Source: a phage. Taken from it: a stretch of 64,000 nucleotides of DNA. Below, one piece after another: positions 4,146-42,424 of this stretch. How positions within the stretch are numbered: the first letter of the stretch is position 1; each line of letters starts with the position of its first letter. The translations under genes were made by a program, and so were the position numbers. Location: the sequence record PZ000613.1. One strand, 5' to 3'. The notes beneath the pieces are model-generated. The model did no database searches and was not told the origin of the DNA. It saw only the letters and a list, made by a program, of their open reading frames with translations.

Positions 4146-4244
4146 GATTTCTATCGGGTACGATGTAAAACATACAAGGCAAGGAAACTTGCCCCGCTCT
4201 TTAAGAGTCAGGCTAGAAAGTGAAAAATATTCTTAAAAAGAGTA

Positions 4245-4273
4245 TTGACACCAGAAAAAGCCTGATATATAGT
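4245..4273 (+). promoter_or_regulatory. Sigma70-like promoter (TTGACA-17-TATAGT)
   Basis: Consensus -35, 17-nt spacer, same -10 variant as promoter at 2292; A-tract upstream. Confidence 0.55.
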
Positions 4274-4389
4274 GAGCATAGTCAGCGATGACGTGAAATA
4301 TCCCGCTCTTTAATAATTTATCATCTTGCCCTTTCGCAAAGATTCACGCGAGATAAGGGAAAAGAATAAAAGAAGATGATAAAAAAGGG

Positions 4390-4418
4390 TTGCAAACGTG
4401 GTTAAGGTAGTTCATACT
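4390..4418 (+). promoter_or_regulatory. Sigma70-like promoter (TTGCAA-17-CATACT)
   Basis: Hexamers with 17-nt spacer and A-tract upstream; weaker match. Confidence 0.45.
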
Positions 4419-4691
4419 AACCACAAGTTAGCAAAACATCGCTAACTAGTTCCCAAATCAACGTATCACGGGAAAGGTAGCACATAGTGCAGTGAGTAGT
4501 TCAGGTGTAGGCGGCCTGTTAATGAATAAGTAAGCCTTTAATGTGACAGTGATTAGCAGACACTCTAAAAGGCTAACGCTCTTTAACAATATGAATCATA
4601 AGTTAAGCCTCACCGCTTAATCTTCAATCAAATAAAGCTGATTGATATATCCTCCCAATAGCGGGAACGACGAAAAAGATTAAAAAAGCGG

Positions 4692-4720
4692 TTGACAGCT
4701 AAAACAACATGATTCATAAT
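4692..4720 (+). promoter_or_regulatory. Sigma70-like promoter (TTGACA-17-CATAAT)
   Basis: Consensus -35, 17-nt spacer, A-tract upstream. Confidence 0.55.
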
Positions 4721-5640
4721 GAGCACACTTAAGCAAATCACCGCTTAAGGAAAGCGTAACAACGGCTAACGGTTGCATAGTGTGAGAAAGCACACTGATA
4801 GATTTACCGCTCTTTAATAATTTAAACATTCTCCTATATCGGTTGAATATGTTAGATGATAATAACCATCGGATAACATACCAGATAAAACGGTGTAAGA
4901 CTCTCTAAACTATCAGAGAAAAACAGCCTTACAATCCCTTACTGGAAACGTCACCACTGATAAACGGATTCATTGAGTGCACGCAAAGACTTAAGCTAAT
5001 CGCCCACGGTTAAGGGTAGCGGCGGTCATCGCTAACAAGGCGCTACAGTGAAAGAAGTTAATCAGGGTAGGCAAGCCCGAAGAAATAACGCTCAATTGAG
5101 AGCGGCGGGGAGTGGTTAAAAAGTGGCAAATTGCTATTTAACAATGAGGTTTAGTGTGAACGTTTATGATGTGAACGGCTTGAGATTCATCTTATGATGA
5201 AAGTACATAGTCGGTTTATGTAGTAAACTTGCCGAAAGATATAAAACGTCGGAACATTAGACGGTCAATGACTCTTTCGCAATAGTATCCCGTAGTGGGC
5301 GATGACTGGCGATTGAGAGTTGATATAAAAGGATAGGCGAGAGCGAAAGCAAAGTAAACGATATTGCCGACGGTTACAATAACGTAACTAATTAGAGTCG
5401 GACGCACTGCCTTATTGTGATGATTGATCATCGCTATCAGGTCGGCTTCGTTTATAGCGGCTAATTAAAGATACCAGATGAAACATCACGGATAAGGGGG
5501 CGGCAAGGTTAACTCCTGATAAGACCGCCCCGCTTACCTATAACTACTTACAATGAGTGGTTATAGTTAAGTTAATAGTGACTTAAACAAGCTCATAGAG
5601 AGCGGGGCAATAGCGCCCTTACAATTGAAAGGTGAATATT

Positions 5641-7366: not shown

Positions 7367-7810
7367 GTGGCTAAATCTAAAATCAGCATGAAGGGCGGGC
7401 GTTGTTTTTCTATCTCTGAACTGGAGAAAGAGAAACCAAAGGCAACCAATCACGTTAGCAAGCGTAGTTTAAAACGTCGTGCTGTAAAGGCTGTGGCTGA
7501 ATCTCATATTCCTTCCAGTGTGGCAAAACGTGTAGGCCATCGTGTCCATCGTGCTGATGCGTTGTTGTTAGCTGATCATAAACGTTCTCTGTTAAAGAGC
7601 GGGGGAGCTAAAACAGAAGAAGAGAAGAAGTTAGAAATCTTCTGTAATGGTCGCACTCGAGGTAAACAGAAGTTTAAGGGGAGCACGAAAGACCCTCAGG
7701 CATTCCCTAAGACAAGCCAGTGTGCACCTGATGTTTTCTACGCAGATAGTAAACACAAGTGGGGCGTTGAGAAATACATTGACCCCATCAAAGAGGCAAG
7801 GGTTAAGTAG
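7367..7810 (+). CDS. Hypothetical highly basic protein (147 aa, GTG start)
   Basis: Lys/Arg-rich ORF with SD AAGGAA, followed by tandem terminators. Confidence 0.55.
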   Translation: MAKSKISMKGGRCFSISELEKEKPKATNHVSKRSLKRRAVKAVAESHIPSSVAKRVGHRVHRADALLLADHKRSLLKSGGAKTEEEKKLEIFCNGRTRGKQKFKGSTKDPQAFPKTSQCAPDVFYADSKHKWGVEKYIDPIKEARVK

Positions 7811-7892
7811 TAGGAATATAGCCCCCCCTCTTTTAGTACTATGACGCTCTTTCTGTAGCGTCGTGCCCTCTCCCCATTTGAAGCTTCCGCAT

Positions 7893-7915
7893 AGCCGCCT
7901 TTGAGCGGCTTTTTG
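7893..7915 (+). terminator. Rho-independent terminator
   Basis: AGCCGC-ctttga-GCGGCT hairpin plus TTTTT. Confidence 0.6.
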
Positions 7916-7977
7916 CGTTGCTGTAAGTGCATTTGCGAGTGTATTTATAGCAACGGTCATGTGTTGCTTTCAGGTTT

Positions 7978-8003
7978 GCCCCGGCTACGGCTGGGGCTTT
8001 TTT
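7978..8003 (+). terminator. Rho-independent terminator
   Basis: GCCCCGGC-tacg-GCTGGGGC hairpin plus TTTTTT. Confidence 0.65.
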
Positions 8004-8052
8004 ATGCCCGTAAAACAGGAGGTATCAAGTTCTGATAACAACGGCCCAGCTA

Positions 8053-8442
8053 ATGTTGACATTGACTATTTATTATGAGGCAGGGAATCAGCCAACCGCA
8101 TGTAAGGCTTTAGTTGCGGATACCGTAATAAATAGAATGGCACAACGAAAACTGACCGCTGAACAGGTGATAAGACAAAAGAACCAGTTTGAGTGGATTC
8201 CGGTACTATTAAAACAGGAGAAACCTTATAAACGTTATGTAAAGCTGATTCGTGATAAAAATCCGATGACTGAGCAAGCCATTGGAGAAAGCGAGCGACT
8301 TGCTAAACGTGCCCTTAAGAAGAATTATGTTCCTCTGTATAGTGGGACTTACTTTCAGAGTAAGAGCGAAGGGGTGCCAAAATGGTATGCCAATCCTATG
8401 TATTGTGGTGATTTAGTGTTCGATAATAGCTCTAGGGAATAA
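8053..8442 (+). CDS. SleB/CwlJ-like cell-wall hydrolase (Hydrolase_2-like)
   Basis: Motifs TIYYEAGNQ...ALVADTVINR...QFEW and C-terminal YFQSK...WYANP resemble the SleB/CwlJ family; ATG start. Confidence 0.6.
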   Translation: MLTLTIYYEAGNQPTACKALVADTVINRMAQRKLTAEQVIRQKNQFEWIPVLLKQEKPYKRYVKLIRDKNPMTEQAIGESERLAKRALKKNYVPLYSGTYFQSKSEGVPKWYANPMYCGDLVFDNSSRE

Positions 8443-8640
8443 TCACTAGTGCCAGATTTGACAAACTAAATTCCTTTATAAACCAACCACTTAGTAAATT
8501 TATTGAAAAAGATGGTAGTATTCTGGGACTATGGGTAATGCTCTGTATATAGACCCTTTGAAAATTTCTTAGAAAATAAGTTTACTAAATATAACTTACT
8601 TAAATAATATTACTTTTAATCTCTGATAAAGGTGAATAAT

Positions 8641-8937
8641 ATGACTTTAGAAGTATATAAATTCCTTTTTGTAAGCTGTTTAACTATCAGCGTTATAGGG
8701 TTTATTGTTCTCAGAAACAAAGCAGCAAGCTGGGAGAGAATGTATAAATCTCTAGTCCGAGTGGATGAGATGTATAATGAGAAAGTTAAAGTAACACTCA
8801 ACGATCTTATTATGCAAGTTGAAGACAGAAACAAACGTCTTCAGAACCTCAACCACGAGGTGTTACGCCTTGCTCGTGCTAATGAAGACTTGCGAGTGGC
8901 TATTGCTAAGCAGCAGGAGATTAACAGTGAAAGTTAA
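8641..8937 (+). CDS. Membrane-anchored coiled-coil protein
   Basis: N-terminal TM segment then heptad-rich region; SD AAAGGTGA 8 nt before ATG. Confidence 0.55.
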   Translation: MTLEVYKFLFVSCLTISVIGFIVLRNKAASWERMYKSLVRVDEMYNEKVKVTLNDLIMQVEDRNKRLQNLNHEVLRLARANEDLRVAIAKQQEINSES

Positions 8938-9163
8938 TATTAAATCCGATCGTACAATGCTTCGCTTAAACAACATGAAGCCGGGCGTTCTATTTGAGCG
9001 TAAAGATTCCCTTTACATTAGAACCGACACCCTGTACGCAGATAATTATGTCAACTGTGTTGATGTGGTAACTGGAAAGCTCATGCCTTTTAAACGGGAT
9101 GAAGTCTGCCAAGTACGTAACGATCTCCACATAACCAACATAGAGGCTAAAGATGAAGATTGA
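8927..9163 (+). CDS. Early small-protein paralog family A member (GTG start)
   Basis: SD AGGAGA 6 nt before GTG; shares LxLxxMKPGxxF...Y(I/M)R motif with the other family members. Confidence 0.55.
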   Translation: MKVNIKSDRTMLRLNNMKPGVLFERKDSLYIRTDTLYADNYVNCVDVVTGKLMPFKRDEVCQVRNDLHITNIEAKDED

Positions 9164-9404
9164 TCTTGAGTTGAAGAGTCCGGAGCTAAAAGTGGGTGAT
9201 TTGAAACTTGGAGATGTATTCCAAGTGAAGGCAACATGTATTGACCATTACATGATTGTTCAGCTATACACACCACATGTATCAGAGACTGATCTTCGGG
9301 ATGGTTGTGTGGTTCTTAGTTTACGTACTAATCAAGTGATGAAGCTAGACCCAAACTTACCTGTTTCAGTTATCCATGATGTAGTAATTACTAATCGGAA
9401 GTGA
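9153..9404 (+). CDS. Early small-protein paralog family A member
   Basis: KVGDLKLGDVFQV...YMIVQ motif; coupled to upstream gene. Confidence 0.6.
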   Translation: MKIDLELKSPELKVGDLKLGDVFQVKATCIDHYMIVQLYTPHVSETDLRDGCVVLSLRTNQVMKLDPNLPVSVIHDVVITNRK

Positions 9405-9712
9405 GTATGTCTGTTTCTTCTTTTGTAATATGCAAACCAACCGTAATAATTCGTGCTCAAATGAAACACTGTTCTGGTGTCACATATCTAGAGTTCGATC
9501 ATAGTGATAGCCGATATAATCCCGGATTTACAGTGGCGATTAAATCTCCGTGGTTTAATATGACATTGTTGCCGGAAGAAGTAGAGTCAGCGTGTCGTGG
9601 CATCAAGACGGGGAGTTTGAGTCTTCTGTCCTCTAACTTAGGGGACGAGTTTATGCCTTTGATTCAGAAAGGTGTGGCTAACGTTCGTAAGATGAAGGAA
9701 GCGGTTAAGTAA
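9401..9712 (+). CDS. Hypothetical protein (103 aa)
   Basis: ORF overlapping upstream stop; co-oriented. Confidence 0.55.
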   Translation: MSMSVSSFVICKPTVIIRAQMKHCSGVTYLEFDHSDSRYNPGFTVAIKSPWFNMTLLPEEVESACRGIKTGSLSLLSSNLGDEFMPLIQKGVANVRKMKEAVK

Positions 9713-9721
9713 CACCGACTT

Positions 9722-9749
9722 ATAGCCCTTGTGTCTATCAGAGGGCTAT
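9722..9749 (+). promoter_or_regulatory. Conserved intergenic hairpin (ATAGCCCT...AGGGCTAT), copy 1 of 2
   Basis: 8-bp inverted repeat with 12-nt loop then GTGAG; near-identical copy at 15754-15781; no T-tract. Confidence 0.5.
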
Positions 9750-10070
9750 GTGAGGGTGTTCCTCATTAACTTATTAATTCAGGCATATGCCACACCGCTA
9801 GGGAGAGCTTGCTCGAACATCCGGTGTTAGACTAAAACCTGTTAATTTTCGAAAGACTTTCTGATATGTAGGGGTACATATTGGTTTGGGATTCAGGAGA
9901 CTTCCTAGGGGTAGGGAGTCTTCACCAGTTGGAATAAGAGATAGCTCTAGAACCTGAACTCTTAGGCAGAGAAGGTCGGCAATGAGTACGCGGTCAGGAT
10001 TAGTCTACTGACTAGGGCTATCCCTTATATCAACTGGCAATAATGCCTCCACTAACAAAGAGAGATAGGT

Positions 10071-10211
10071 ATGAAAGTATCAACCAAACGTATGAACCGC
10101 CCTGAACGTATGGATGCAGTAGCTAACGGTGCTCTGAAACTGGAAGGCTTCTGGATTCATGCAATGTCAGCTGTTCGTAACAAGCAAGGCAATTGGACCT
10201 ATGCCGGTTAA
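10071..10211 (+). CDS. Small hypothetical protein (46 aa)
   Basis: ATG after GA-rich SD-like sequence; stop overlaps next gene start. Confidence 0.3.
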   Translation: MKVSTKRMNRPERMDAVANGALKLEGFWIHAMSAVRNKQGNWTYAG

Positions 10212-10410
10212 AACAGTTCATGTAATAGGTATGCGAGAAATCATTCGCATTGCCTTGATGGAACACACTGAACGTAACATGCAACTAACTCAAATCTCTA
10301 AGTGTCTTAATTGCTCAAGAGATGTGGCTAAGGAGTTGATGTTCGCATTCCTGTATAATGCAGAAGACGGGACGCTACAGAATCATCTGATTCGTGGTGT
10401 GAGTCAATAA
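10201..10410 (+). CDS. Hypothetical protein (69 aa)
   Basis: Internal ATG of track ORF 10159-10410; overlaps stop of upstream small ORF. Confidence 0.5.
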   Translation: MPVKTVHVIGMREIIRIALMEHTERNMQLTQISKCLNCSRDVAKELMFAFLYNAEDGTLQNHLIRGVSQ

Positions 10411-10414
10411 AGAG

Positions 10415-10444
10415 AGGCTGCCTTCGGGCGGCCTTTGTTGTTTT
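10415..10444 (+). terminator. Rho-independent terminator
   Basis: AGGCTGCC-ttcg-GGCGGCCT hairpin plus TTTGTTGTTTT. Confidence 0.7.
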
Positions 10445-10488
10445 AACTAAGGGACAACTCTTACTTAAACTAACAAGAGGAAGCTAAA

Positions 10489-10665
10489 ATGTCTAAGCAA
10501 ACAATCAAACATACGCAAGCTGGTTACTCTTATGTCAACTCTCCTTGCTGTGGTGCTCGTGTTAATCTGGTTAAGGAAGAGGTTCGTATCGTTCAGCGTG
10601 GAGCTACTGTTGTTCGTTCATGCTGTGTCTGTGGTAATGATATTTTCATTAAAGGTAAAGTATGA
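10489..10665 (+). CDS. Small Cys-rich zinc-ribbon-like protein (58 aa)
   Basis: SD GAGGAAG; paired cysteines PCCG...CCVCG; stop overlaps next ATG. Confidence 0.5.
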   Translation: MSKQTIKHTQAGYSYVNSPCCGARVNLVKEEVRIVQRGATVVRSCCVCGNDIFIKGKV

Positions 10666-10889
10666 ATATTGTTTTAGATTCAACTAAACCAAATCAAAAG
10701 ACTTTCCGAGATTTGAGTGTGGGTTCTGTTTTCTCACTTGATGATTGCCCTTGTGATAGAAAGAAATTCTACATGAAGATTGGGGGAGGTTTTTCTGTAA
10801 ATCTATCACACCCTGCTCATAAACTCTCATTCGCTGGTCAAGTACCAGTTACAGAATATAAAGCAACTCTTAAGTTAGAGGAAATGTAA
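10662..10889 (+). CDS. Early small-protein paralog family A member
   Basis: RDLSVGSVFSL...FYMKIG motif. Confidence 0.6.
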   Translation: MNIVLDSTKPNQKTFRDLSVGSVFSLDDCPCDRKKFYMKIGGGFSVNLSHPAHKLSFAGQVPVTEYKATLKLEEM

Positions 10890-11140
10890 TGAAAAACTTC
10901 CAAGCTGCACCAATAACTAAAGTGATTGAAGTTGACGGTGTAATGATGACTGTTCCTCTGAACACTCGTTACATTGCAATTGACAAGATGGGTTATGTAT
11001 GGGCTTGGAAGATTAAGCCTAGCTATAACGCATTATTTGATGAGTTTGTTTGTACTGGTACGTACAGTCCTACATTCTTAGGTTTGTTTGGAGAGTTTGA
11101 CGGTCAGTATAAAATCATCACTCTCCCTGCTTGTGCTTGA
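10889..11140 (+). CDS. Hypothetical protein (83 aa)
   Basis: ATG overlapping upstream stop. Confidence 0.55.
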   Translation: MKNFQAAPITKVIEVDGVMMTVPLNTRYIAIDKMGYVWAWKIKPSYNALFDEFVCTGTYSPTFLGLFGEFDGQYKIITLPACA

Positions 11141-11147
11141 GGTTAAT

Positions 11148-11324
11148 GTGAGAGTAAAGCAAATCCATAAAGACTACTGGAGAGTCGCTGATAGTGAAAA
11201 CCAAAGGCTTGCAGGAATCTCTCTTATAGGTCAATGGTTTGTTGTAACTTCTGCCGCAGGTCAGTATGTTGGACGGTTTCGTTCCCTAAATGAAGCTATA
11301 TCCTTTTCTATCAAAGGTTCTTGA
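11148..11324 (+). CDS. Hypothetical protein (GTG start, 58 aa)
   Basis: GAGG SD 7 nt before in-frame GTG; track start 11088 would overlap upstream gene. Confidence 0.4.
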   Translation: MRVKQIHKDYWRVADSENQRLAGISLIGQWFVVTSAAGQYVGRFRSLNEAISFSIKGS

Positions 11325-11325
11325 T

Positions 11326-11490
11326 ATGATCAAGTGGTTTAAACGTTTCTTCCATCTCCATGATTGGGAGACAATAAAAGAAATTCGTTTACACATATAC
11401 AATGAGATCGGTCAAATAGAAGACACAGGTACTCGTTATATACTTCGATGTAAAACATGTGGTCATATCACCAAGCGAGATATGATCTAA
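11326..11490 (+). CDS. Small hypothetical protein (54 aa)
   Basis: Internal ATG immediately after upstream stop; C-terminal CKTCGH. Confidence 0.45.
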   Translation: MIKWFKRFFHLHDWETIKEIRLHIYNEIGQIEDTGTRYILRCKTCGHITKRDMI

Positions 11491-11498
11491 ATAATTCT

Positions 11499-11574
11499 GC
11501 GCTCTTAGCTCAATGGATAGAGCAGTAGCCTTCTAAGCTATTGGTTACAGGTTCGAGTCCTGTAGGGCGCACCA
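11499..11574 (+). tRNA. tRNA-Arg (anticodon TCT), CCA encoded
   Basis: Cloverleaf: acceptor GCGCTCT/AGGGCGC, D-arm AGCTCAATGGATAGAGC, anticodon loop CTTCTAA, T-arm GGTTCGAGTCC, discriminator A plus CCA. Confidence 0.85.
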
Positions 11575-11580
11575 CATTTA

Positions 11581-11695
11581 GGGCTAGTATGGGTGCGGCA
11601 CCAGAGTTAGTGTATCCCTGTTGAGGCAAGTGCTTTTATAACAGTGGGAATTACTTTCTTAGTGAGCTTCTGGTTCGATTCCAGATAGTCCACCA
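11581..11695 (+). other. tRNA-like element of atypical length (115 nt)
   Basis: Canonical T-arm TCTGG-TTCGATT-CCAGA, 6-bp acceptor-like pairing 11581-86 with 11686-91, discriminator plus CCA; interior 82 nt has no clean D/anticodon arms. Confidence 0.3.
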
Positions 11696-11714
11696 AATCA
11701 AATAGGAGGTAGTT

Positions 11715-11996
11715 ATGAGTTGGGGTGGTGTAATATCCTTAATCTGTATCTTCCTTGTCTGCATAGCCCTTACAGGCTGCGTACAGAGCCGTCCTGATGG
11801 ATGGTGTGCAGTAGCAGTGGAAGGTATTTGTGTTTCTCGCTGGCACCAAGGCGAGAAGGTTCCTTCTGGTGAAATTGATATGCGTTACAGTGGTATCTCA
11901 TGTCTTAACGGTGCAGCAGTAGATGAGGAGACTAAAACCTTATCCAATGCTCAATGGTGTGGCGGTTCTGTAACAACAACCGGTAAGGAGTGGTAA
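11715..11996 (+). CDS. Predicted lipoprotein, Cys-rich (93 aa)
   Basis: Signal peptide ending in lipobox LTGC; SD AGGAGG 7 nt upstream. Confidence 0.65.
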   Translation: MSWGGVISLICIFLVCIALTGCVQSRPDGWCAVAVEGICVSRWHQGEKVPSGEIDMRYSGISCLNGAAVDEETKTLSNAQWCGGSVTTTGKEW

Positions 11997-11997
11997 T

Positions 11998-12246
11998 ATG
12001 ACAGCTCATTATTGGAATACAAAGAAGCTTCTTGAAGAGATGGCTGGAGGTAGTAGGGTACAGTTAATCTCTATGCTTCGAATGGATGCTCGCTCCTTAC
12101 GCTTCCAAGTAAAGATTGGTAACTTCAGTGACGGCCTTTATTACACGCTGAAGGAAAGGATTAAGAAGACTCACTTCATCATGTACGGAATCAAACCGAG
12201 AACGTACGTTAACTACATGTATTGGAATACATGCTACGATAATTGA
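11998..12246 (+). CDS. Hypothetical protein (82 aa)
   Basis: ATG overlapping upstream stop. Confidence 0.55.
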   Translation: MTAHYWNTKKLLEEMAGGSRVQLISMLRMDARSLRFQVKIGNFSDGLYYTLKERIKKTHFIMYGIKPRTYVNYMYWNTCYDN

Positions 12247-12253
12247 GGTTATT

Positions 12254-12475
12254 ATGAAACTAGACTCTAAGCAGTCACTTAAAACCGTTGAGCTGTCCAC
12301 TCTGCCAAACGGAAGTATTTTTGGTCATGATAAACACTTCTGGATTAAAACAGACATCATAAACGATGGATATATCACCTGTGTCAATCTTTGGAACGGC
12401 TCAGTGGATGGCTATCGCCCTAGCGCAAAGGTGGTGCCTCAGCCTGATGCAAAGGCTACAGGTTTGGTTTACTAA
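12254..12475 (+). CDS. Early small-protein paralog family A member
   Basis: VELSTLPNGSIFG...FWIKTD motif. Confidence 0.6.
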   Translation: MKLDSKQSLKTVELSTLPNGSIFGHDKHFWIKTDIINDGYITCVNLWNGSVDGYRPSAKVVPQPDAKATGLVY

Positions 12476-12489
12476 GGAGTTCAGTATAA

Positions 12490-12624
12490 ATGAAACTCAA
12501 ACGAATGCTTTTTCGAAATGGAATGTACACTCTCCGAGAATCCCCTAAAGGGGACACTACAAAGTGGAGTGTAGGGGATTGGATTTCATTCATAGATGAG
12601 AAGGGCAGCTGGATTCTCGAGTAA
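12490..12624 (+). CDS. Small hypothetical protein (44 aa)
   Basis: ATG ORF with AAGGAG 12 nt upstream; below track size cut-off. Confidence 0.3.
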   Translation: MKLKRMLFRNGMYTLRESPKGDTTKWSVGDWISFIDEKGSWILE

Positions 12625-12635
12625 CAGGAGCCTGT

Positions 12636-12809
12636 ATGAGTTGTTTTGGTGGCGGTGAAGTGGATGACGATGATGATATGGAATCTAACGGTACATGTCC
12701 TGATTGTGGATGTGAGACGTGGGATGGCGTGTCAGTGTATCCTGCCTGTAGTTACTCACCAGTGATCTGTAAAACATGTGGAGATCAACCTTGTGACCAG
12801 TCTTGTTAG
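12636..12809 (+). CDS. Small Cys-rich acidic protein (57 aa)
   Basis: SD CAGGAG 5 nt before ATG; 10 cysteines in CPDCGC...CKTCG...PCDQSC. Confidence 0.5.
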   Translation: MSCFGGGEVDDDDDMESNGTCPDCGCETWDGVSVYPACSYSPVICKTCGDQPCDQSC

Positions 12810-12810
12810 T

Positions 12811-13035
12811 GTGTTAATAGCCTATTTAATAGGGTCAGTAGTATCAGGTGTTCTAATTAAGATCATAGATGTTAAAGGTAATCAGTGTTTCAGAGGTTGG
12901 GATGGTGAACCAGATCTCGGAAAGATAGCAGCTATGGTTTTCTTATGGCCTATTATTGCTGTACTGTTTATAGCACTTGTAGCATGGGCTGCCCTTTGGG
13001 ATTTCATCCTTCCTAACAAAAAGTATGAGGACTAA
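12811..13035 (+). CDS. Small membrane protein, LWPI-motif paralog 1 (GTG start)
   Basis: Two hydrophobic segments; shares EPD...M...LWPI motif with 13178-13435. Confidence 0.5.
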   Translation: MLIAYLIGSVVSGVLIKIIDVKGNQCFRGWDGEPDLGKIAAMVFLWPIIAVLFIALVAWAALWDFILPNKKYED

Positions 13036-13166
13036 TGACTGAAGAATTTTTAAAGTGGTTTGGTGATACCTTCAAAGAGTATCTATTCTCTCCAGAAGAC
13101 TTTGAAGAACTGAAAACCTACACTTGGTTGGCTTGGAGAGATAGCCGACGAAAGTTGAACAAGTAA
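13035..13166 (+). CDS. Small hypothetical protein (43 aa)
   Basis: taATG overlap, SD GAGGA. Confidence 0.4.
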   Translation: MTEEFLKWFGDTFKEYLFSPEDFEELKTYTWLAWRDSRRKLNK

Positions 13167-13177
13167 GAGACGATTAA

Positions 13178-13435
13178 ATGGGTTTACTTGATATTTTTAT
13201 CTCAGTTTACTTTATTGGAGTATTCCTTTCTGTTTTAGTGCTGAAACTACTATACAAGAAAGGTCTACTAAAAGGGGTCATTACAACAGGGTCTACCAGC
13301 TCTGAACCTGATGAGATGATGGTTGTGATCTTAATTGTGTTATGGCCCATCTCAATACTGGCAGGAGTCTGTTATCCGATAGGTTGGCTTCTGTCTAAAG
13401 CATATGATGCAGTTATACGTTTTATATTTAAGTAA
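13178..13435 (+). CDS. Small membrane protein, LWPI-motif paralog 2
   Basis: ATG ORF 85 aa with two TM segments, paralogous to 12811-13035. Confidence 0.6.
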   Translation: MGLLDIFISVYFIGVFLSVLVLKLLYKKGLLKGVITTGSTSSEPDEMMVVILIVLWPISILAGVCYPIGWLLSKAYDAVIRFIFK

Positions 13436-13646
13436 TATCGTGAAGGATTCTTACGAGAGTCCTTTGAGATAGGACTTCAGATCTCCTATCAAACTAACAT
13501 TCATGTAACTAGCCCATAAGGGCGTTACCCTTTAATAACCCAGCCCACTAAGGGGGCGGGAGTTTAGTGCTGGATTGGCTTTACGCTTATTCCTACAAAG
13601 GCAACCGATTGTTAGATCTTACATGCAATATTAACTAATAGGGTAA

Positions 13647-13677
13647 GGGAGGATTCGTCCCCTCCCCCTATTTTATT
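13647..13677 (+). terminator. Probable Rho-independent terminator
   Basis: GGGAGG...CCTCCC stem followed by CTATTTTATT. Confidence 0.5.
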
Positions 13678-13725
13678 GAATCTTTATCTAAGCAAGTCTT
13701 ATATAAATGTTTAATTGGAGGATGT

Positions 13726-14037
13726 ATGAAAGCACGAAGAACTATATGGACTCCTATGCAGATTGAAAACCTTCGGAGACTAATCAAAGAGTACTCGGTT
13801 CAAGAAGTTGCTCAGATTATGAATGTAACGGAGAATGCTGTTAACACAGCTTGCACTAAATTCGGAATATCAAGAGCTTCAATCCGAGTTAAATGGTCTG
13901 AAGAAGAAGACCAGTTCCTTATCCGTAATGCTGGGTTCATGTCTATTCAGAGAATGGCTGACATGCTCGGTAGAAGTTATGCTGCTGTACAGAACAGGGC
14001 ATGTATGCACCTTAACATTAGCCTCAAACTTAAATAG
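13726..14037 (+). CDS. Putative DNA-binding protein with two Myb/SANT-like HTH repeats
   Basis: Two W-x(17-20)-helix repeats (WTPMQIENLRRL...; WSEEEDQFLIRN...); SD GGAGG. Confidence 0.55.
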   Translation: MKARRTIWTPMQIENLRRLIKEYSVQEVAQIMNVTENAVNTACTKFGISRASIRVKWSEEEDQFLIRNAGFMSIQRMADMLGRSYAAVQNRACMHLNISLKLK

Positions 14038-14045
14038 GAATCGAT

Positions 14046-14300
14046 ATGAAAGTTAACGAGTTGAACAAAACCATCAAGACTGTGAAACTCCACACTCTAA
14101 AGAATGGTGACACATTCCGTAAAGAGGAGAACGGCCCAATCCACATGGTGTGTACTGCGTCGTCTACCAATTGGGTGGAAGTTGCACGAGATCGAATTGT
14201 GTGCGTAAGACTGGAAGATGGCAGTCTGAGTGGTCCGGTTGACGGCATCTCTGTCATACCGGTCAAAGTTGAAGCTAACGTTATTAAGGGTTCTAAATGA
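14046..14300 (+). CDS. Early small-protein paralog family A member
   Basis: VKLHTLKNGDTFR...HMV...VIPV motif. Confidence 0.65.
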   Translation: MKVNELNKTIKTVKLHTLKNGDTFRKEENGPIHMVCTASSTNWVEVARDRIVCVRLEDGSLSGPVDGISVIPVKVEANVIKGSK

Positions 14301-14536
14301 AGATTACAAAGAGAGTGGATCGTGTCCCACTTGAGTCCTTAGAAAACGGGGCCGTGTTTAAGCATCCAGACAGTGACACACTCTATGTTAAAGGTTTTGT
14401 TCACGGCACACCTAATGTGTCCGTAAATAATGGACGTACTCTATCTCTTCGTCTACATGACGGGCTTGTAACAGCACCTGATTCTACGTGCCAAGTTATC
14501 CCTGTGTCAGCTGAACTTTTAGTGAGTGATTGCTAA
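14297..14536 (+). CDS. Early small-protein paralog family A member
   Basis: VPLESLENGAVFK...LYVKG...VIPV motif; ATGA coupling. Confidence 0.65.
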   Translation: MKITKRVDRVPLESLENGAVFKHPDSDTLYVKGFVHGTPNVSVNNGRTLSLRLHDGLVTAPDSTCQVIPVSAELLVSDC

Positions 14537-14781
14537 TGAAAATCATCCCAAAGAAAAAGGATAATACGGTTCGATTGGAAACAATCATTCCCGGAAACCC
14601 TTTCGTGGTTCAGAACGGAAGTGCTTCTCCTCAGTATTATATGAGGGTTGAAAATGCTTCTGGTAATATCCGTATAGCTAGTGGTTGGATTCCTGTAGTG
14701 AATCTATTCACAGGTGTGCTGTGTGTTAAAGGTGCTGACGAACAGGTTGAAATGATTCGTATGTCAGTTGTTCAGGAGTAA
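14536..14781 (+). CDS. Early small-protein paralog family A member
   Basis: VRLETIIPGNPFV...YYMRV...IPV motif; taATG overlap. Confidence 0.6.
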   Translation: MKIIPKKKDNTVRLETIIPGNPFVVQNGSASPQYYMRVENASGNIRIASGWIPVVNLFTGVLCVKGADEQVEMIRMSVVQE

Positions 14782-14783
14782 TC

Positions 14784-15044
14784 ATGAGCACTATTCATAT
14801 TAAAGTTAAGAGCAAAGAGGAAACAGTCCTCCGTGTTAAAGATCTAAATATGTCAGATGTGTTCACTCTCCAAGAGTGCCATCTTCAAAAGACTTACATG
14901 CTGACAGCCAAGAGTAGGGGCAGTCAACCTGCTGGAGCTGTTAACCTAGGCACTGGAGAACTACGTGTCATCTCTGGTGATATGGTTGTTGGTGAGAAGT
15001 TTAGTAAAGCTGAAATTATCTTAACTCCACAGGAAAACAAATGA
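14784..15044 (+). CDS. Early small-protein paralog family A member
   Basis: LRVKDLNMSDVFT...YMLT motif. Confidence 0.65.
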   Translation: MSTIHIKVKSKEETVLRVKDLNMSDVFTLQECHLQKTYMLTAKSRGSQPAGAVNLGTGELRVISGDMVVGEKFSKAEIILTPQENK

Positions 15045-15157
15045 GACGTAAAGCATATTCTTATGACGATATGATTAACCAGAAAGGTTTTGGTCAACGA
15101 CAGCCTGATGGTTCAATTATCTGGTTTGTAAACGGACAGAAAAAGGTAACTAAATAA
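15041..15157 (+). CDS. Small hypothetical protein (38 aa)
   Basis: ATG overlapping upstream TGA; below track size cut-off. Confidence 0.3.
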   Translation: MRRKAYSYDDMINQKGFGQRQPDGSIIWFVNGQKKVTK

Positions 15158-15263
15158 GCCCTCTTCTCTCCTCCTTTTAGTACTATGACGCCTCTTTTTA
15201 GACGGCCCAATTTGCGTAGGGAATTCCCTCTACGCAGCCATGACTTTTTAAGGAATTTCCCCT

Positions 15264-15497
15264 ATGTCTAAAGTAAGCGCAATCGATGCAATCCGTCAAC
15301 CGTTCCAGTTCCAATCCAAATCAACCCAAACCTTCAGTGAACCTAAGCAAATTCGCTTGGGCGGCACGGAGAAAACTGTGTTCGATCTGGCTAAAAACAA
15401 GAGCGTTACCGTAGTTGATGGTGGCACTCTGGTTAACGTTTCCCATCGCATCCGCACTGGCAAAACTGCCAAAGATCGTGCTAAGAAAGGTCTGTAA
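15264..15497 (+). CDS. Hypothetical protein (77 aa)
   Basis: ATG ORF with GGAA SD-like sequence. Confidence 0.55.
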   Translation: MSKVSAIDAIRQPFQFQSKSTQTFSEPKQIRLGGTEKTVFDLAKNKSVTVVDGGTLVNVSHRIRTGKTAKDRAKKGL

Positions 15498-15748
15498 TGC
15501 AAATTTCCAATAAAACACCTCCTGAGCCTACTGTTCAAGTAAAAGATATGACACCGGGAGATGTGTTTCGTTCGGTTGAATATCCGGGGGAATTCTTTAT
15601 CCGAATCCCTTCTGCCTCTGTTGATGGTGTCACTAAGCCGGTAACAGCAGTTCAGTTGAGCACAGGTCATCTCTTCCGTTTAGAGCTTGACATGGCAGCT
15701 ATTCCTGTTCCGACAGCAATCCTCCGCTTCGACGGAGACACAGAGTAA
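15497..15748 (+). CDS. Early small-protein paralog family A member
   Basis: VQVKDMTPGDVFR...FFIRIP...IPV motif; taATG coupling. Confidence 0.6.
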   Translation: MQISNKTPPEPTVQVKDMTPGDVFRSVEYPGEFFIRIPSASVDGVTKPVTAVQLSTGHLFRLELDMAAIPVPTAILRFDGDTE

Positions 15749-15753
15749 CATCT

Positions 15754-15781
15754 ATAGCCCTCGTAAGTATCAGAGGGCTAT
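15754..15781 (+). promoter_or_regulatory. Conserved intergenic hairpin (ATAGCCCT...AGGGCTAT), copy 2 of 2
   Basis: Near-identical to 9722-9749; downstream GTGTTCCTCA and ACATCCG blocks also shared. Confidence 0.5.
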
Positions 15782-15982
15782 GTGAGCTATTCTGGCTCAA
15801 CTAACCTAATCTTAATATATTTCCCGTATGGGGCCGATGCTAGGGCGAGGAGTGTTCCTCAAACATCCGTCGGATAGATATTTTAAGAGCAGGTTATCCA
15901 CAGATATTGGGTAATATCTTTTTTTGGATTTAAAGCTTGGCTCTTTTCGGAGAGTCCTTTTTTAAATTCAACGAGAGGAAAT

Positions 15983-16135
15983 ATGTCTAAATTAGATTTA
16001 AAACTGCTAGCAGCAGCGGTAGTGATTTGTGCACTAGCACTGGTAACGCAGAGAACATCTGGATTTATTCAGTGTTTCTTTTCTGGGCAATCCACTTATC
16101 AGTGGGTTATTGACGAGTGTAAACAACAGGAGTAA
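15983..16135 (+). CDS. Small membrane/secreted protein (50 aa)
   Basis: SD GAGAGGA then ATG; hydrophobic N-terminus; stop 2 nt before next ATG. Confidence 0.45.
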   Translation: MSKLDLKLLAAAVVICALALVTQRTSGFIQCFFSGQSTYQWVIDECKQQE

Positions 16136-16137
16136 GT

Positions 16138-16500
16138 ATGAATACACGTCCCATCAAGGGCAACGTTAATATTGAAACTCTGAACAAGGTTGCATCAAAC
16201 CTCGGTGGTATGTCCAACGAAGAACTTGAGCAAGAACTTGCTTGGATTGCAAATGGTATCACAATTGCTAAAGGTAAGATGGCTCGTGAGCAAAGTAATA
16301 TGAAAGCTCACAAGTATATCATCCGTCGTGCAAACATGTTACCGGATCGGGTTGTACATCTTGCCCGTAAGAACTACGAAAGTGCTAAAGAAGCCCTGCT
16401 TGAAGCAGAGTTTCAGAAGCATCAATTTATGAACAACTATCGAAACTTCCGAGATATTCTTTATATCCGTAAATCGATTGAGTTGATTAAAAACCAATAG
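16138..16500 (+). CDS. Hypothetical protein (120 aa)
   Basis: ATG ORF, first gene of the amidoligase-cluster operon. Confidence 0.6.
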   Translation: MNTRPIKGNVNIETLNKVASNLGGMSNEELEQELAWIANGITIAKGKMAREQSNMKAHKYIIRRANMLPDRVVHLARKNYESAKEALLEAEFQKHQFMNNYRNFRDILYIRKSIELIKNQ

Positions 16501-42048: not shown

Positions 42049-42264
42049 ATGGAATACATTGATAAATACTCAAGTGAAGATTCAACAAACGCTGAAGTTT
42101 TATTTATACTAAAAACAGACTGTCTTGAACATGGTCAACTTATCAATTTCATTGAGTTGGCAAAACTTAAAGAAGAGATAGATCAACTGTATAGCGATGA
42201 GCAGTCTCGTTTGTTGTCACTGTCCCTTCTCGGAGATCTTACCTGTGATGGATGTACTATCTAA
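42049..42264 (+). CDS. Hypothetical acidic protein (71 aa)
   Basis: Strong SD AGGAG upstream of ATG. Confidence 0.5.
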   Translation: MEYIDKYSSEDSTNAEVLFILKTDCLEHGQLINFIELAKLKEEIDQLYSDEQSRLLSLSLLGDLTCDGCTI

Positions 42265-42424
42265 CTCTGAGAAAAAGAAGATCTCAGTATTTAAAGAACC
42301 TGTAGTTTATAAAGACTCTATCAGAGATCAATATAATGAGATGTTAAAGAAACAAGCTGATTCTAATCTTCGTTATCAGAGGATATTAGAACAAACTAAC
42401 TTTAAAGGTTTACTTGAATGGTAA
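42248..42424 (+). CDS. Small hypothetical protein (58 aa)
   Basis: Internal ATG overlapping upstream gene end. Confidence 0.4.
   Translation: MDVLSNSEKKKISVFKEPVVYKDSIRDQYNEMLKKQADSNLRYQRILEQTNFKGLLEW

Follow-up and report, generated by a model that had tools for sequence, protein, structure and literature searches.

Phage phiEco32 is a model of phage control of host transcription, with its own sigma factor gp36 and the inhibitor gp79. In the early RNAs of phages transcribed by the host polymerase, paralogous intercistronic hairpins are classically RNase III sites, such as T7 R0.3-R1.3 and the lambda N leader, and such a site comprises about two helical turns (at least 20 bp) of coaxial double-stranded RNA, often with an internal loop, and is cut in a staggered, rnc-dependent manner. 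The nut sites of lambda and P22 are defined by boxA (CGCUCUUUA), a boxB hairpin with a GNRA-like pentaloop and the protein N; the T4 PeSL are conserved intergenic modules with a sigma70 early promoter, located at the borders of small early gene cassettes and at recombination junctions. The put RNAs of HK022 are about 70 nt long, consist of two stem-loops and lie 0-270 nt from the promoter (PMC9378689). Terminators are suppressed by put without further factors, via the zinc-binding domain of the RNA polymerase beta' subunit. Here, two structured non-coding RNA modules, A and B, and an unstructured repeat of 17 nt are described in the early operon of a Kuravirus (a phiEco32-like podophage, coliphage), within a 64,000-nucleotide stretch of phage DNA (sequence record PZ000613.1; hereafter the window, position 1 being its first letter). 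Modules A and B are selected RNA structures of the early transcript, located at cistron and cassette borders independently of the identity of the neighbouring genes.

Both modules share the architecture of a first hairpin (H1), a spacer and two further hairpins (H2 and H3). They are akin to the T7 and lambda RNase III sites as paralogous related hairpins without U-tracts between the cistrons of a host-polymerase early transcript, and differ from them in that H1 alone is too short, that the modules are multi-helix domains of 220-360 nt, and that the T7 and lambda sites have no invariant non-canonical internal loop such as that of H3. As in the case of HK022 putL and putR, two paralogous structured RNAs of an early operon transcribed by the host polymerase are located upstream of terminators, with no nearby phage gene needed (PMC9378689); however, the modules are larger, at least 1 kb away from candidate promoters and unrelated to put in sequence and structure, and a covariance model of H2 and H3 (R1) found nothing above 5.6 bits in the HK022 immunity region. 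With the nut and rrn systems the phage shares four consensus boxA copies (CGCTCTTTAA) in its early promoter cluster, some of them followed by hairpins, and with nut also a segment of a P22-type N leader included in module A. However, these boxA copies lie outside the modules and the 17-mer, the H1 loops are variable and of 4 or 12 nt, no boxB-like GNRA pentaloop occurs in the hairpins, and no N-like family was found among the neighbouring proteins.

Structure of modules A and B

Module A was aligned from 15 distinct sequences and folded with RNAalifold, with slid helix partners and 500 shuffles as controls; the alignment of module B comprised 17 distinct sequences from Kuravirus, Suseptimavirus, the 7-11 lineage and metagenomes, with the partners slid by 1-3 columns as control. 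The consensus of module A contains 80 pairs in 12 helices and that of module B 54 pairs in 10 helices, with 98.9% of cells paired in each. Compensatory pairs number 13 in module A (1-2 in the slid controls) and 10 in module B (0-2), and none of 500 shuffles reached the observed score in either case; the single-sequence folds have z = -3.78 for module A and -4.84 for module B. Module A extends from the stop codon of the upstream gene (TAA 9710-9712, in the conserved AAGTAAC) to the ATG of the phi32_112 homologue at 10071, and module B from the stop codon of its upstream gene to the phi32_90 homologue (ATG 15983). Together they represent about 0.6 kb of strongly conserved, covarying non-coding RNA in the phiEco32-type early operon that matches no Rfam family: with Rfam 15 over the whole window, tRNA-Arg alone passes the gathering threshold, and permissive scans of A, B and both 17-mer regions gave chance-level matches (E >= 0.01) far below the gathering scores.

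The most conserved part of the domain is hairpin H3: its 6-bp outer stem leads through an invariant 7x7 internal loop (5'-CUAGGGN / N'AACAUC-3') to the inner stem GAG(GA)/(UC)CUC. The outer stem exists in four fully complementary versions, CCGAUG/CGUCGG, UCGGUG/CGCCGA, (A)CACCG/CGGUG(U) and AUAGCG/CGCUAU, and in H3 taken alone 99.4% of cells pair and four of the six outer-stem pairs are compensated (16 distinct sequences). The 7x7 loop is probably fully non-Watson-Crick. Its two bases adjoining the inner stem vary together, being A:G, C:A or A:A and never a Watson-Crick pair; this pattern would fit a sheared purine pair heading a continuous non-canonical helix (A.G, G.A, G.A, G-C, A.A, U.U, C.C). 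The model R1 recovered two sites in the window, at 71.4 bits (B, E 2e-16) and 58.9 bits (A, E 3e-13), with the next match at 10.9, and one site within 50 kb of phage 7-11; no extra copies of H2-H3 were found by this search in the window or in those 50 kb. The possibility that UAUGG of H2 and CUAGG of H3 form a pair like the 11-nt tetraloop receptor was dropped, the covariation supporting separate hairpins. No mention of the modules, or of boxA in phiEco32, was found in the literature searched, although two primary phiEco32 papers may contain one. The RNA family and the H3 motif are regarded as new, and their kind, structured cis elements between early phage cistrons, as familiar. As a compact motif of about 50 nt, H2-H3 is suited to structural and binding work.

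The helices of module A follow in the order H1 with an outer helix, H2, H3, H4, H5, H6 and H7. The outer helix ACACC (9712-9716) / GGUGU (9755-9759) extends H1 and contains a pair that covaries (CG in ten sequences, UG in three, UA in two), and H4 varies via G.U intermediates (UG:10, UA:3, CG:2). Helix H6 holds six compensatory pairs; its core arms (9940-9950 / 10012-10022) carry the AUAGCYCU/AGGGCUAU stem once more, and in its basal arms GAUAGCUCUAG/CUAGGGCUAUC the H1-type stem occurs for a third time. It was also observed that the neighbouring H4 (9871-9874) and H5 (9908-9911) have the same apex UA-GGGG-UA, and that the self-complementary CUAG is repeated in the H3 loop, the H5 apex and the H6 arms; such repeats could serve loop-loop contacts or be a repeated protein site.

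Module B comprises H1, a GYUAUUCUGRC hairpin, a closed domain with H2 and H3, a hairpin found only in Kuraviruses and an intrinsic terminator. Its H1 is topped by UUCG, CUCC, CCCG or UACG tetraloop forms among the relatives, with the pairing retained, and compensatory changes against the 7-11 lineage occur in H2, in both H3 stems and in the CUUAA/UUAAG helix. The top pair of the terminator hairpin is UG in ten sequences, CG in four and GC in three; its counterpart is annotated as a terminator in 7-11 and SU7, and the next start codon follows about 20 nt 3' of it. Set against a riboswitch or attenuator leader, in which an aptamer domain and a terminator go with a conserved, mutually exclusive antiterminator pairing, module B is a closed multi-helix domain followed by a terminator, and the candidate antiterminator AAGAGC/GCUCUU is, by eye, not kept in 7-11 or pSal-SNUABM-01.

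Distribution and cassette borders

Module A occurs in Kuravirus and Suseptimavirus, and module B in both of these and in the Grimontviridae Salmonella phages 7-11, SE131 and pSal-SNUABM-01, where it is syntenic (after the phi32_92 homologue) at a nucleotide identity of about 70%. Thus, the conservation in related phages, which had been proposed as a check in a first-pass annotation made from the sequence alone, was found even across virus families. Exact-pattern scans of IMG/VR and metagenome contigs returned further copies of the Kuravirus, SU7 and 7-11 types and otherwise chance matches only, and looser patterns in IMG/VR gave only chance matches in coding DNA, pattern scans being the only search made of these collections. 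The genome scan gave one distant true homologue, on a 48.7-kb contig (L060) binned as a Flavobacterium metagenome-assembled genome, an 8-kb stretch of which resembles a phage early region with many small open reading frames and a 'decoy of host sigma70' family. In the 245-nt intergenic gap of L060, a stop codon and then an unrelated hairpin precede H2 and H3 (57 bits, E 7e-13), the outer stem of the latter being a new, compensated version; an H4-like AAAGACU..AUAUGUAGGUGUA is also present. Since L060 has H2, H3 and the H4-like element behind an unrelated first hairpin, the deep core of the domain is H2-H3(-H4) and H1 is lineage-specific. That the core motif has persisted across two virus families and in an environmental phage unrelated to them points to an interaction with some conserved host machine.

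Module A is joined on its upstream side by at least six unrelated genes and module B by several, always at the stop-containing (A)AGTRAC, with H1 starting 5-10 nt 3' of the stop codon. The alleles of H1 (12-nt loop, UUCG or CUCC tetraloops) and those of the H3 loop reassort among phages. The downstream genes differ among module A, module B, 7-11 and L060, and therefore the element acts at the operon level and is not a gene-specific leader. No N- or Q-like antiterminator was recognised beside module A, where neither the phi32_112 nor the phi32_111 homologue gave an informative match to Pfam or PHROG; a kinship of these two with gp136 of 7-11 was rejected, that protein, labelled 'Q-like', being unrelated to them and resembling a zinc finger. 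The modules mark the exact junctions at which early cassettes are swapped, which is useful for phage engineering.

The repeated hairpin H1

The domain came to notice through its tip. The first-pass annotation had reported an almost identical hairpin at the start of the intergenic regions 9713-10070 and 15750-15982, and all the strings that it quoted are present where it placed them. The hairpin ATAGCCCT-N12-AGGGCTAT, followed by GTGAG, is located at 9722-9754 and 15754-15786; the two 34-mers are 88% identical, two matches with up to three mismatches occur in 64 kb against 0.23 expected, and the expectation for the pattern with a variable spacer is 0.00, so the repeat is not due to chance. The element is a real RNA hairpin, but it proved to be only the tip of a multi-helix domain of 220-360 nt, of which H1 is the least deeply conserved helix and H2-H3 the core. 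The two hairpins looked almost identical because H1 of module B carries an A-like allele in the window. The GTGAG is accounted for by pairing of its GUG with CAY 3' of the stop codon. The spacing of the ATAGCC/GGCTAT arms varies among phages (10, 12 and 16 nt), and a U.G pair occurs in H1 of module B in 12 of 17 sequences; the frequent G.U pairs and the variable spacing show that the pairing is selected in the RNA of the + strand.

Two sequence blocks were also said to be shared downstream. The ACATCCG at 9817-9823 and 15863-15869 is homologous and belongs to the most conserved motif of the whole element. The block GTGTTCCTCA is present at 9756-9765 and 15852-15861, but its copies are non-homologous: in module A it is the 3' strand of the H1 outer helix plus CCUC, and in module B the apical loop and 3' strand of the H3 inner hairpin, the loop differing in most related phages (about a dozen variants). 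The CCUC of module A is paired by RNAalifold with the invariant ribosome-binding site of the next gene with no covariation, and this predicted pairing is unproven.

The hairpins had further been judged not to be terminators for want of a U-tract. This is true of H1, which is followed by GUGAG and is absent from the terminator scan, so that it falls outside the definition of an intrinsic terminator; however, canonical terminators do exist in the same intergenic regions (Table 1). Finally, on the reverse strand of L025 (IMGVR_UViG_3300046786_000487), at about 5055-5115, an H1-like ATAGCCCATC-ATTACT-GGTGGGCTAT, GTGAG and then CTAATAACCTTATC were observed directly 3' of a stop codon and ahead of an apparent structural gene; this hairpin could be distantly related to H1 alone, or have arisen by chance.

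Table 1. Positions of the structured modules, the 17-mer copies and the associated terminators in the window
Feature	Position	Strand	Description
Module A	9709-10070	+	Structured non-coding RNA domain of ~360 nt
H1 of module A	9712-9759	+	Stem AUAGCCCU(U)/(G)AGGGCUAU at 9722-9749; z = -3.87
H2 of module A	9782-9791	+	GGC-AUAU-GCC
H3 of module A	9792-9827	+	Outer stem ACACCG/CGGUGU, loop CUAGGGA / GAACAUC, inner stem GAG-CUUG-CUC
H4 of module A	9861-9884	+	Hairpin with UA-GGGG-UA cap
H5 of module A	9896-9923	+	Hairpin with UA-GGGG-UA cap; 4 compensatory pairs
H6 of module A	9925-10037	+	Irregular, ~24 bp: CCAGUUGG.AUAAG.GAUAGCUCUAG / CUAGGGCUAUC.CUUAU.UCAACUGG
Module B	15745-15968	+	Structured RNA domain of ~220 nt with a conserved intrinsic terminator at its end
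H1 of module B	15754-15781	+	GUG of GUGAG pairs with upstream CAY; z = -4.21
Small hairpin of module B	15786-15796	+	GCUAUUCUGGC, 3' of H1
Closed core of module B	15802-15896	+	UAACCU (15802-15807) / AGGUUA (15891-15896) plus CUUAA / UUAAG
H2 of module B	15823-15832	+	CCC-GUAU-GGG
H3 of module B	15834-15873	+	Outer stem CCGAUG/CGUCGG, loop CUAGGGC / AAACAUC, inner stem GAGGA-GUGU-UCCUC
Terminator of module B	15929-15966	+	A-tract, hairpin GGCUCU-UUUCGG-AGAGUC(C) at 15939-15956, U6
17-mer, copy 1	7822-7862	+	Pyrimidine tract CCCCCCCUC, 17-mer, short hairpin GACGC/GCGUC
17-mer, copy 2	15159-15206	+	Pyrimidine tract CCCUCUUCUCUCCUCC, 17-mer, weak hairpin
Terminators in the regions of the first-pass annotation	7893-7910, 7978-7997; 15939-15956		First 17-mer region (two); end of region B, followed by U6

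The P22-like segment at the tip of H6

The tip of H6 (9951-10011) is an insertion overlapping a segment of about 67 nt (9948-10014) that is 80% identical, with a run of 31/32, to the nutL-N segment of the P22-like Salmonella phages BTP1, ST64T and ST104; by folding, the BTP1 counterpart is the distal part of a long leader hairpin. The insert is present in most Kuraviruses and missing in SU7, NJ01 and the variants L035 and L050, where a short loop caps H6, and it is absent from complete E. coli genomes. A mini-ORF in the insert (MSTRSGLVY), with a Shine-Dalgarno sequence and common to BTP1, was rejected as coding; its ATG is ATA in two variants, and since the mini-ORF is not conserved, the constraint on the insert lies at the RNA. 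The segment is an RNA leader element transferred horizontally between a temperate and a virulent lineage of phages.

The 17-mer module

The first-pass annotation had also grouped with the hairpins, as repeated intergenic modules, an exact 17-mer, TTTTAGTACTATGACGC, which was located at 7831-7847 and 15175-15191 as reported. Matches with up to three mismatches have an expectation of 0.16, and none of 100 shuffles reached the observed count. The grouping did not hold, the one element being structured and the other unstructured and unrelated: the alignment of relatives gave neither a consensus structure nor covariation for the 17-mer module, and the 17-mer is a separate, pyrimidine-rich sequence signal, read single-stranded or at the DNA level. 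Its layout is constant, with a stop codon, a pyrimidine tract, the 17-mer and a short GC stem with a U/C-rich loop. Copy 1 begins 11 nt past the stop codon and is followed by two intrinsic terminators; copy 2 starts directly 3' of the stop codon of the 38-aa phi32_94 homologue. The 17-mer is kept at both sites in Kuraviruses and in part, at one site, in the SU7 group (as ..CTACTATGACGCC), whereas the search of 7-11 yielded no copy.

No obvious promoter could be recognised in the 17-mer, which has neither a sigma70 -35 element nor a gp36 consensus, and a conserved peptide from the ATG within it was rejected, the products of 5, 21 and 26 aa being unrelated. The most likely reading, held with little confidence, is that the 17-mer is a single-stranded RNA signal, either Rho-utilisation-like or Nus-type (boxA-like CCUCUUUUA), or an RNase or protein site, which would mark the end of a transcription block and act with the downstream terminators. 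The conservation of its sequence in the absence of structure, its start right 3' of stop codons with two terminators behind copy 1, the C>G skew of the module (top ~1% of the window) and, by eye, the match of copy 1 to the rrn boxA at 9 of 13 positions are in accord with such a signal. However, exact conservation over 17 nt exceeds the need of a rut site, a C stands in place of the boxA G, genuine boxA copies occur elsewhere in the phage, and 7-11 has no recognisable copy of the 17-mer.

Early-operon context and the boxA cluster

Matches to 7600-16200 were found in 144 phage records; the best, phiEco32, SU10 and WFI101126 among them, reach 92-95% identity. The locus is the early gene region, the counterpart of phiEco32 genes 121 to 88, with dense small open reading frames on the + strand, to which every gene over 7.8-15.8 kb and further along the early region belongs. 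Region A (9713-10070) lies between the positions of phi32_113 and phi32_112, and this gap is 358 nt long in the window, phiEco32 and WFI101126 despite a different upstream gene; region B (15750-15982) is the phi32_91/phi32_90 gap.

A promoter scan of the window located strong sigma70 promoters at 2292, 4245 and 4692, in agreement with the description of strong early sigma70 promoters for phiEco32 and SU10 (PMC4281155). The gp36 promoters (tAATGTAtA) are known only upstream of genes 6, 13, 26, 40, 58 and 68 (PMC8948821, PMC4331800). No sigma70 or gp36 promoter was found within the modules (scan of 9713-10070 and 15750-15982), nor any promoter-like + strand site within about 1 kb upstream of them; TAATATATT in module B, which by eye matches 7 of 9 positions of the gp36 consensus, was rejected as such a promoter, not being kept in SU7. 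The terminator scan of the + strand over 6.5-16 kb listed six sites (6563, 7893, 7978, 10413, 13647 and 15939), with an uninterrupted T-run at 7893, 7978 and 15939 and an interrupted or offset one at the others, and the weaker candidates listed for the + strand over 16-36 kb include none with a comparable uninterrupted T-run.

In the early sigma70 promoter cluster (4190-4820), the boxA consensus C-GCTCTTTAA occurs four times on the + strand, at 4196, 4305, 4578 and 4809, and the only other GCTCTTTAA copy in 64 kb lies on the opposite strand. Of the four, CGCTCTTTAACAA (4577-4589) agrees with the rrn boxA in 12 of 13 positions. All four positions are kept in SU7, and none was found in 7-11. By its sequence, the cluster suggests Nus-dependent antitermination of Kuravirus early transcription, of the rrn or nut type. 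Hairpins of the form TTAAGC-N6/8-GCTTAA, at 4605-4622 and 4729-4748, come after the third boxA and the 4692 promoter.

Possible functions of the modules

A tentative preference is given to the reading that the modules act in cis as intercistronic punctuation, by RNA end protection and processing, of the long transcript made by the host RNA polymerase. H1 would clamp the 3' end of the upstream cistron and thereby protect it, and the rigid H2-H3 unit would be a dock for a conserved host factor. In module A, the long H6, with its tip taken from a P22-type N-gene leader, would be a target of the RNase III type, and in module B the terminator would play the equivalent role in setting the 3' end. 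The outcome would be discrete stable RNA segments, with the decay and translation of adjacent gene blocks decoupled, and, as a side effect, the near-identical modules would provide homology linkers at the points of gene-cassette exchange. In accord with the T7 and lambda RNase III sites, protective 3' stems would remain after processing, and H6, with about 24 bp and small internal loops, is long enough for an RNase III site, its tip sharing homology with the hairpin in the leader that precedes N in the P22-like phages. Control of read-through or processing by the modules, if real, would explain how a few early promoters suffice for over 40 kb of genes in spite of the six terminator-like hairpins in between.

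Several points weigh against punctuation. H1, with 8-10 bp and an extension of 3-6 bp, is short for RNase III, and the AU-rich spacer of module B, an obvious RNase E target, is base-paired (UAACCU/AGGUUA). Module A and the L060 element are without a terminator, which makes 3'-end formation non-uniform across the family. End protection alone leaves the invariant H3 loop, and its survival in a distant environmental phage, unexplained. The four boxA near the early promoters amount to an investment in elongation control and keep antitermination alive as an alternative.

In that alternative, which is possible but unlikely, the nascent H2-H3 RNA would bind the host RNA polymerase, alone as in HK022 put or with a factor as in nut, and permit or regulate read-through of the terminators at 10413 (after A) and 15939 (inside B). 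The two paralogous copies with shared sequence and structure recall putL/putR (PMC9378689). Module B is located directly upstream of a conserved terminator with no promoter before the next genes; this terminator at 15939 is the last of the six listed on the + strand, with no comparable T-run listed over the next 20 kb, and its counterpart is the only terminator annotated in the leftward cluster of 7-11 within the 50 kb examined (40-89.9 kb). Phage 7-11 is said by the authors of PMC8948821 to depend on antitermination, the mechanism of which they left undefined; it lacks the boxA copies. The retention of a non-canonical motif across differing GC content and probably hosts suggests a universal target, e.g. 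RNA polymerase. On the other hand, the modules are at least 1 kb from any candidate promoter and module A is downstream of three terminators, SU7 has no terminator after the genes that follow module A, Kuraviruses already possess the four boxA at the promoter cluster, R1 finds nothing in the early regions of HK022 or BTP1, and no conserved antiterminator/terminator alternative pairing was seen in module B. It would be a bolder proposal still, and a rather doubtful one, that H2-H3 is a new widespread class of phage early-operon RNA docking on a universal host machine, most plausibly the elongating RNA polymerase, and giving factor-independent processive antitermination or anti-pausing; if so, it would be a second, structurally unrelated put-type system and would supply the strategy that is left undefined for the 7-11/phiEco32 phages (PMC8948821).

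Also rather doubtful is the possibility that the modules are stable non-coding RNAs acting in trans, module B (H1 to terminator, about 215 nt) as a 3'-UTR-derived RNA and module A as a processed one, with H2-H3 binding, sequestering or redirecting a host protein, or base-pairing with host targets. As in the small RNAs of the CpxQ/SroC type, module B runs from a stop codon to an intrinsic terminator; it has a stable hairpin at its 5' end, and a U-rich stretch leads up to the terminator hairpin and its U6 tail. An intra-operon terminator with no promoter downstream makes sense if it creates an RNA 3' end, and the element's independence from the identity of the neighbouring genes is in accord as well. 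However, module B is much larger than these RNAs, highly structured and with no evident long conserved single-stranded seed, and a terminator is lacking in module A and in the L060 element. A prophage small RNA, svsR, described in a paper that mentions Kuraviruses, is unrelated.

Very improbable is a DNA-level role, as the operator of a dimeric regulator reading the inverted repeat or as mere homology linkers like T4 PeSL: although the modules, like PeSL, are placed exactly at cassette boundaries whose flanking genes vary between phages, and although their H1 and H3 alleles reassort, arm spacings of 10, 12 and 16 nt exclude a fixed-geometry dimeric site, G.U pairs are A.C mismatches on the opposite strand, the sigma70 early promoter that PeSL requires is absent, and the 10-13 compensatory pairs per module represent selection for pairing and not for sequence, so that such explanations are largely excluded by the covariation.

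Further observations in the early region

Another long non-coding gap of the early operon, 13436-13725 (290 nt), holds several hairpins and the terminator-like GGGAGG-N8-CCTCCC at 13647-13666, followed by CCTATTTTAT. The AT-rich gap 8443-8631, upstream of the phi32_116 homologue, has a weak sigma70-like site at 8581-8608 and, at about 8551-8561, CTCTGTATATA, which agrees in 9 of 11 positions with the gp36 promoter motif tAATGTATAtA in its 3' core. Judged by these motifs, the gap may contain an unmapped internal promoter initiating a unit that includes module A.

Directly after tRNA-Arg(UCU) (11499-11574), about 115 nt (11581-11695) have a tRNA-like acceptor/T-arm end, GGGCTAG...TCTGGTTCGATTCCAGATAGTCCACCA; ARAGORN and Rfam made no call in this stretch, which might represent an aberrant tRNA, for instance a degenerate or intron-containing one. 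Comparable T-arm/CCA ends, likewise uncalled, were seen in a 711-nt gap of 7-11 (L056, about 42180-42300, minus strand). This non-coding gap separates gp134 of 7-11 from gp135, the phi32_112 homologue of that phage. In the window, the translation-initiation leader ACTAACAAAGAGAGAT (10050-10073) is located upstream of the phi32_112 homologue, and it is found in identical form before the unrelated gp134 gene in 7-11 (L056, about 42135-42170, minus strand).

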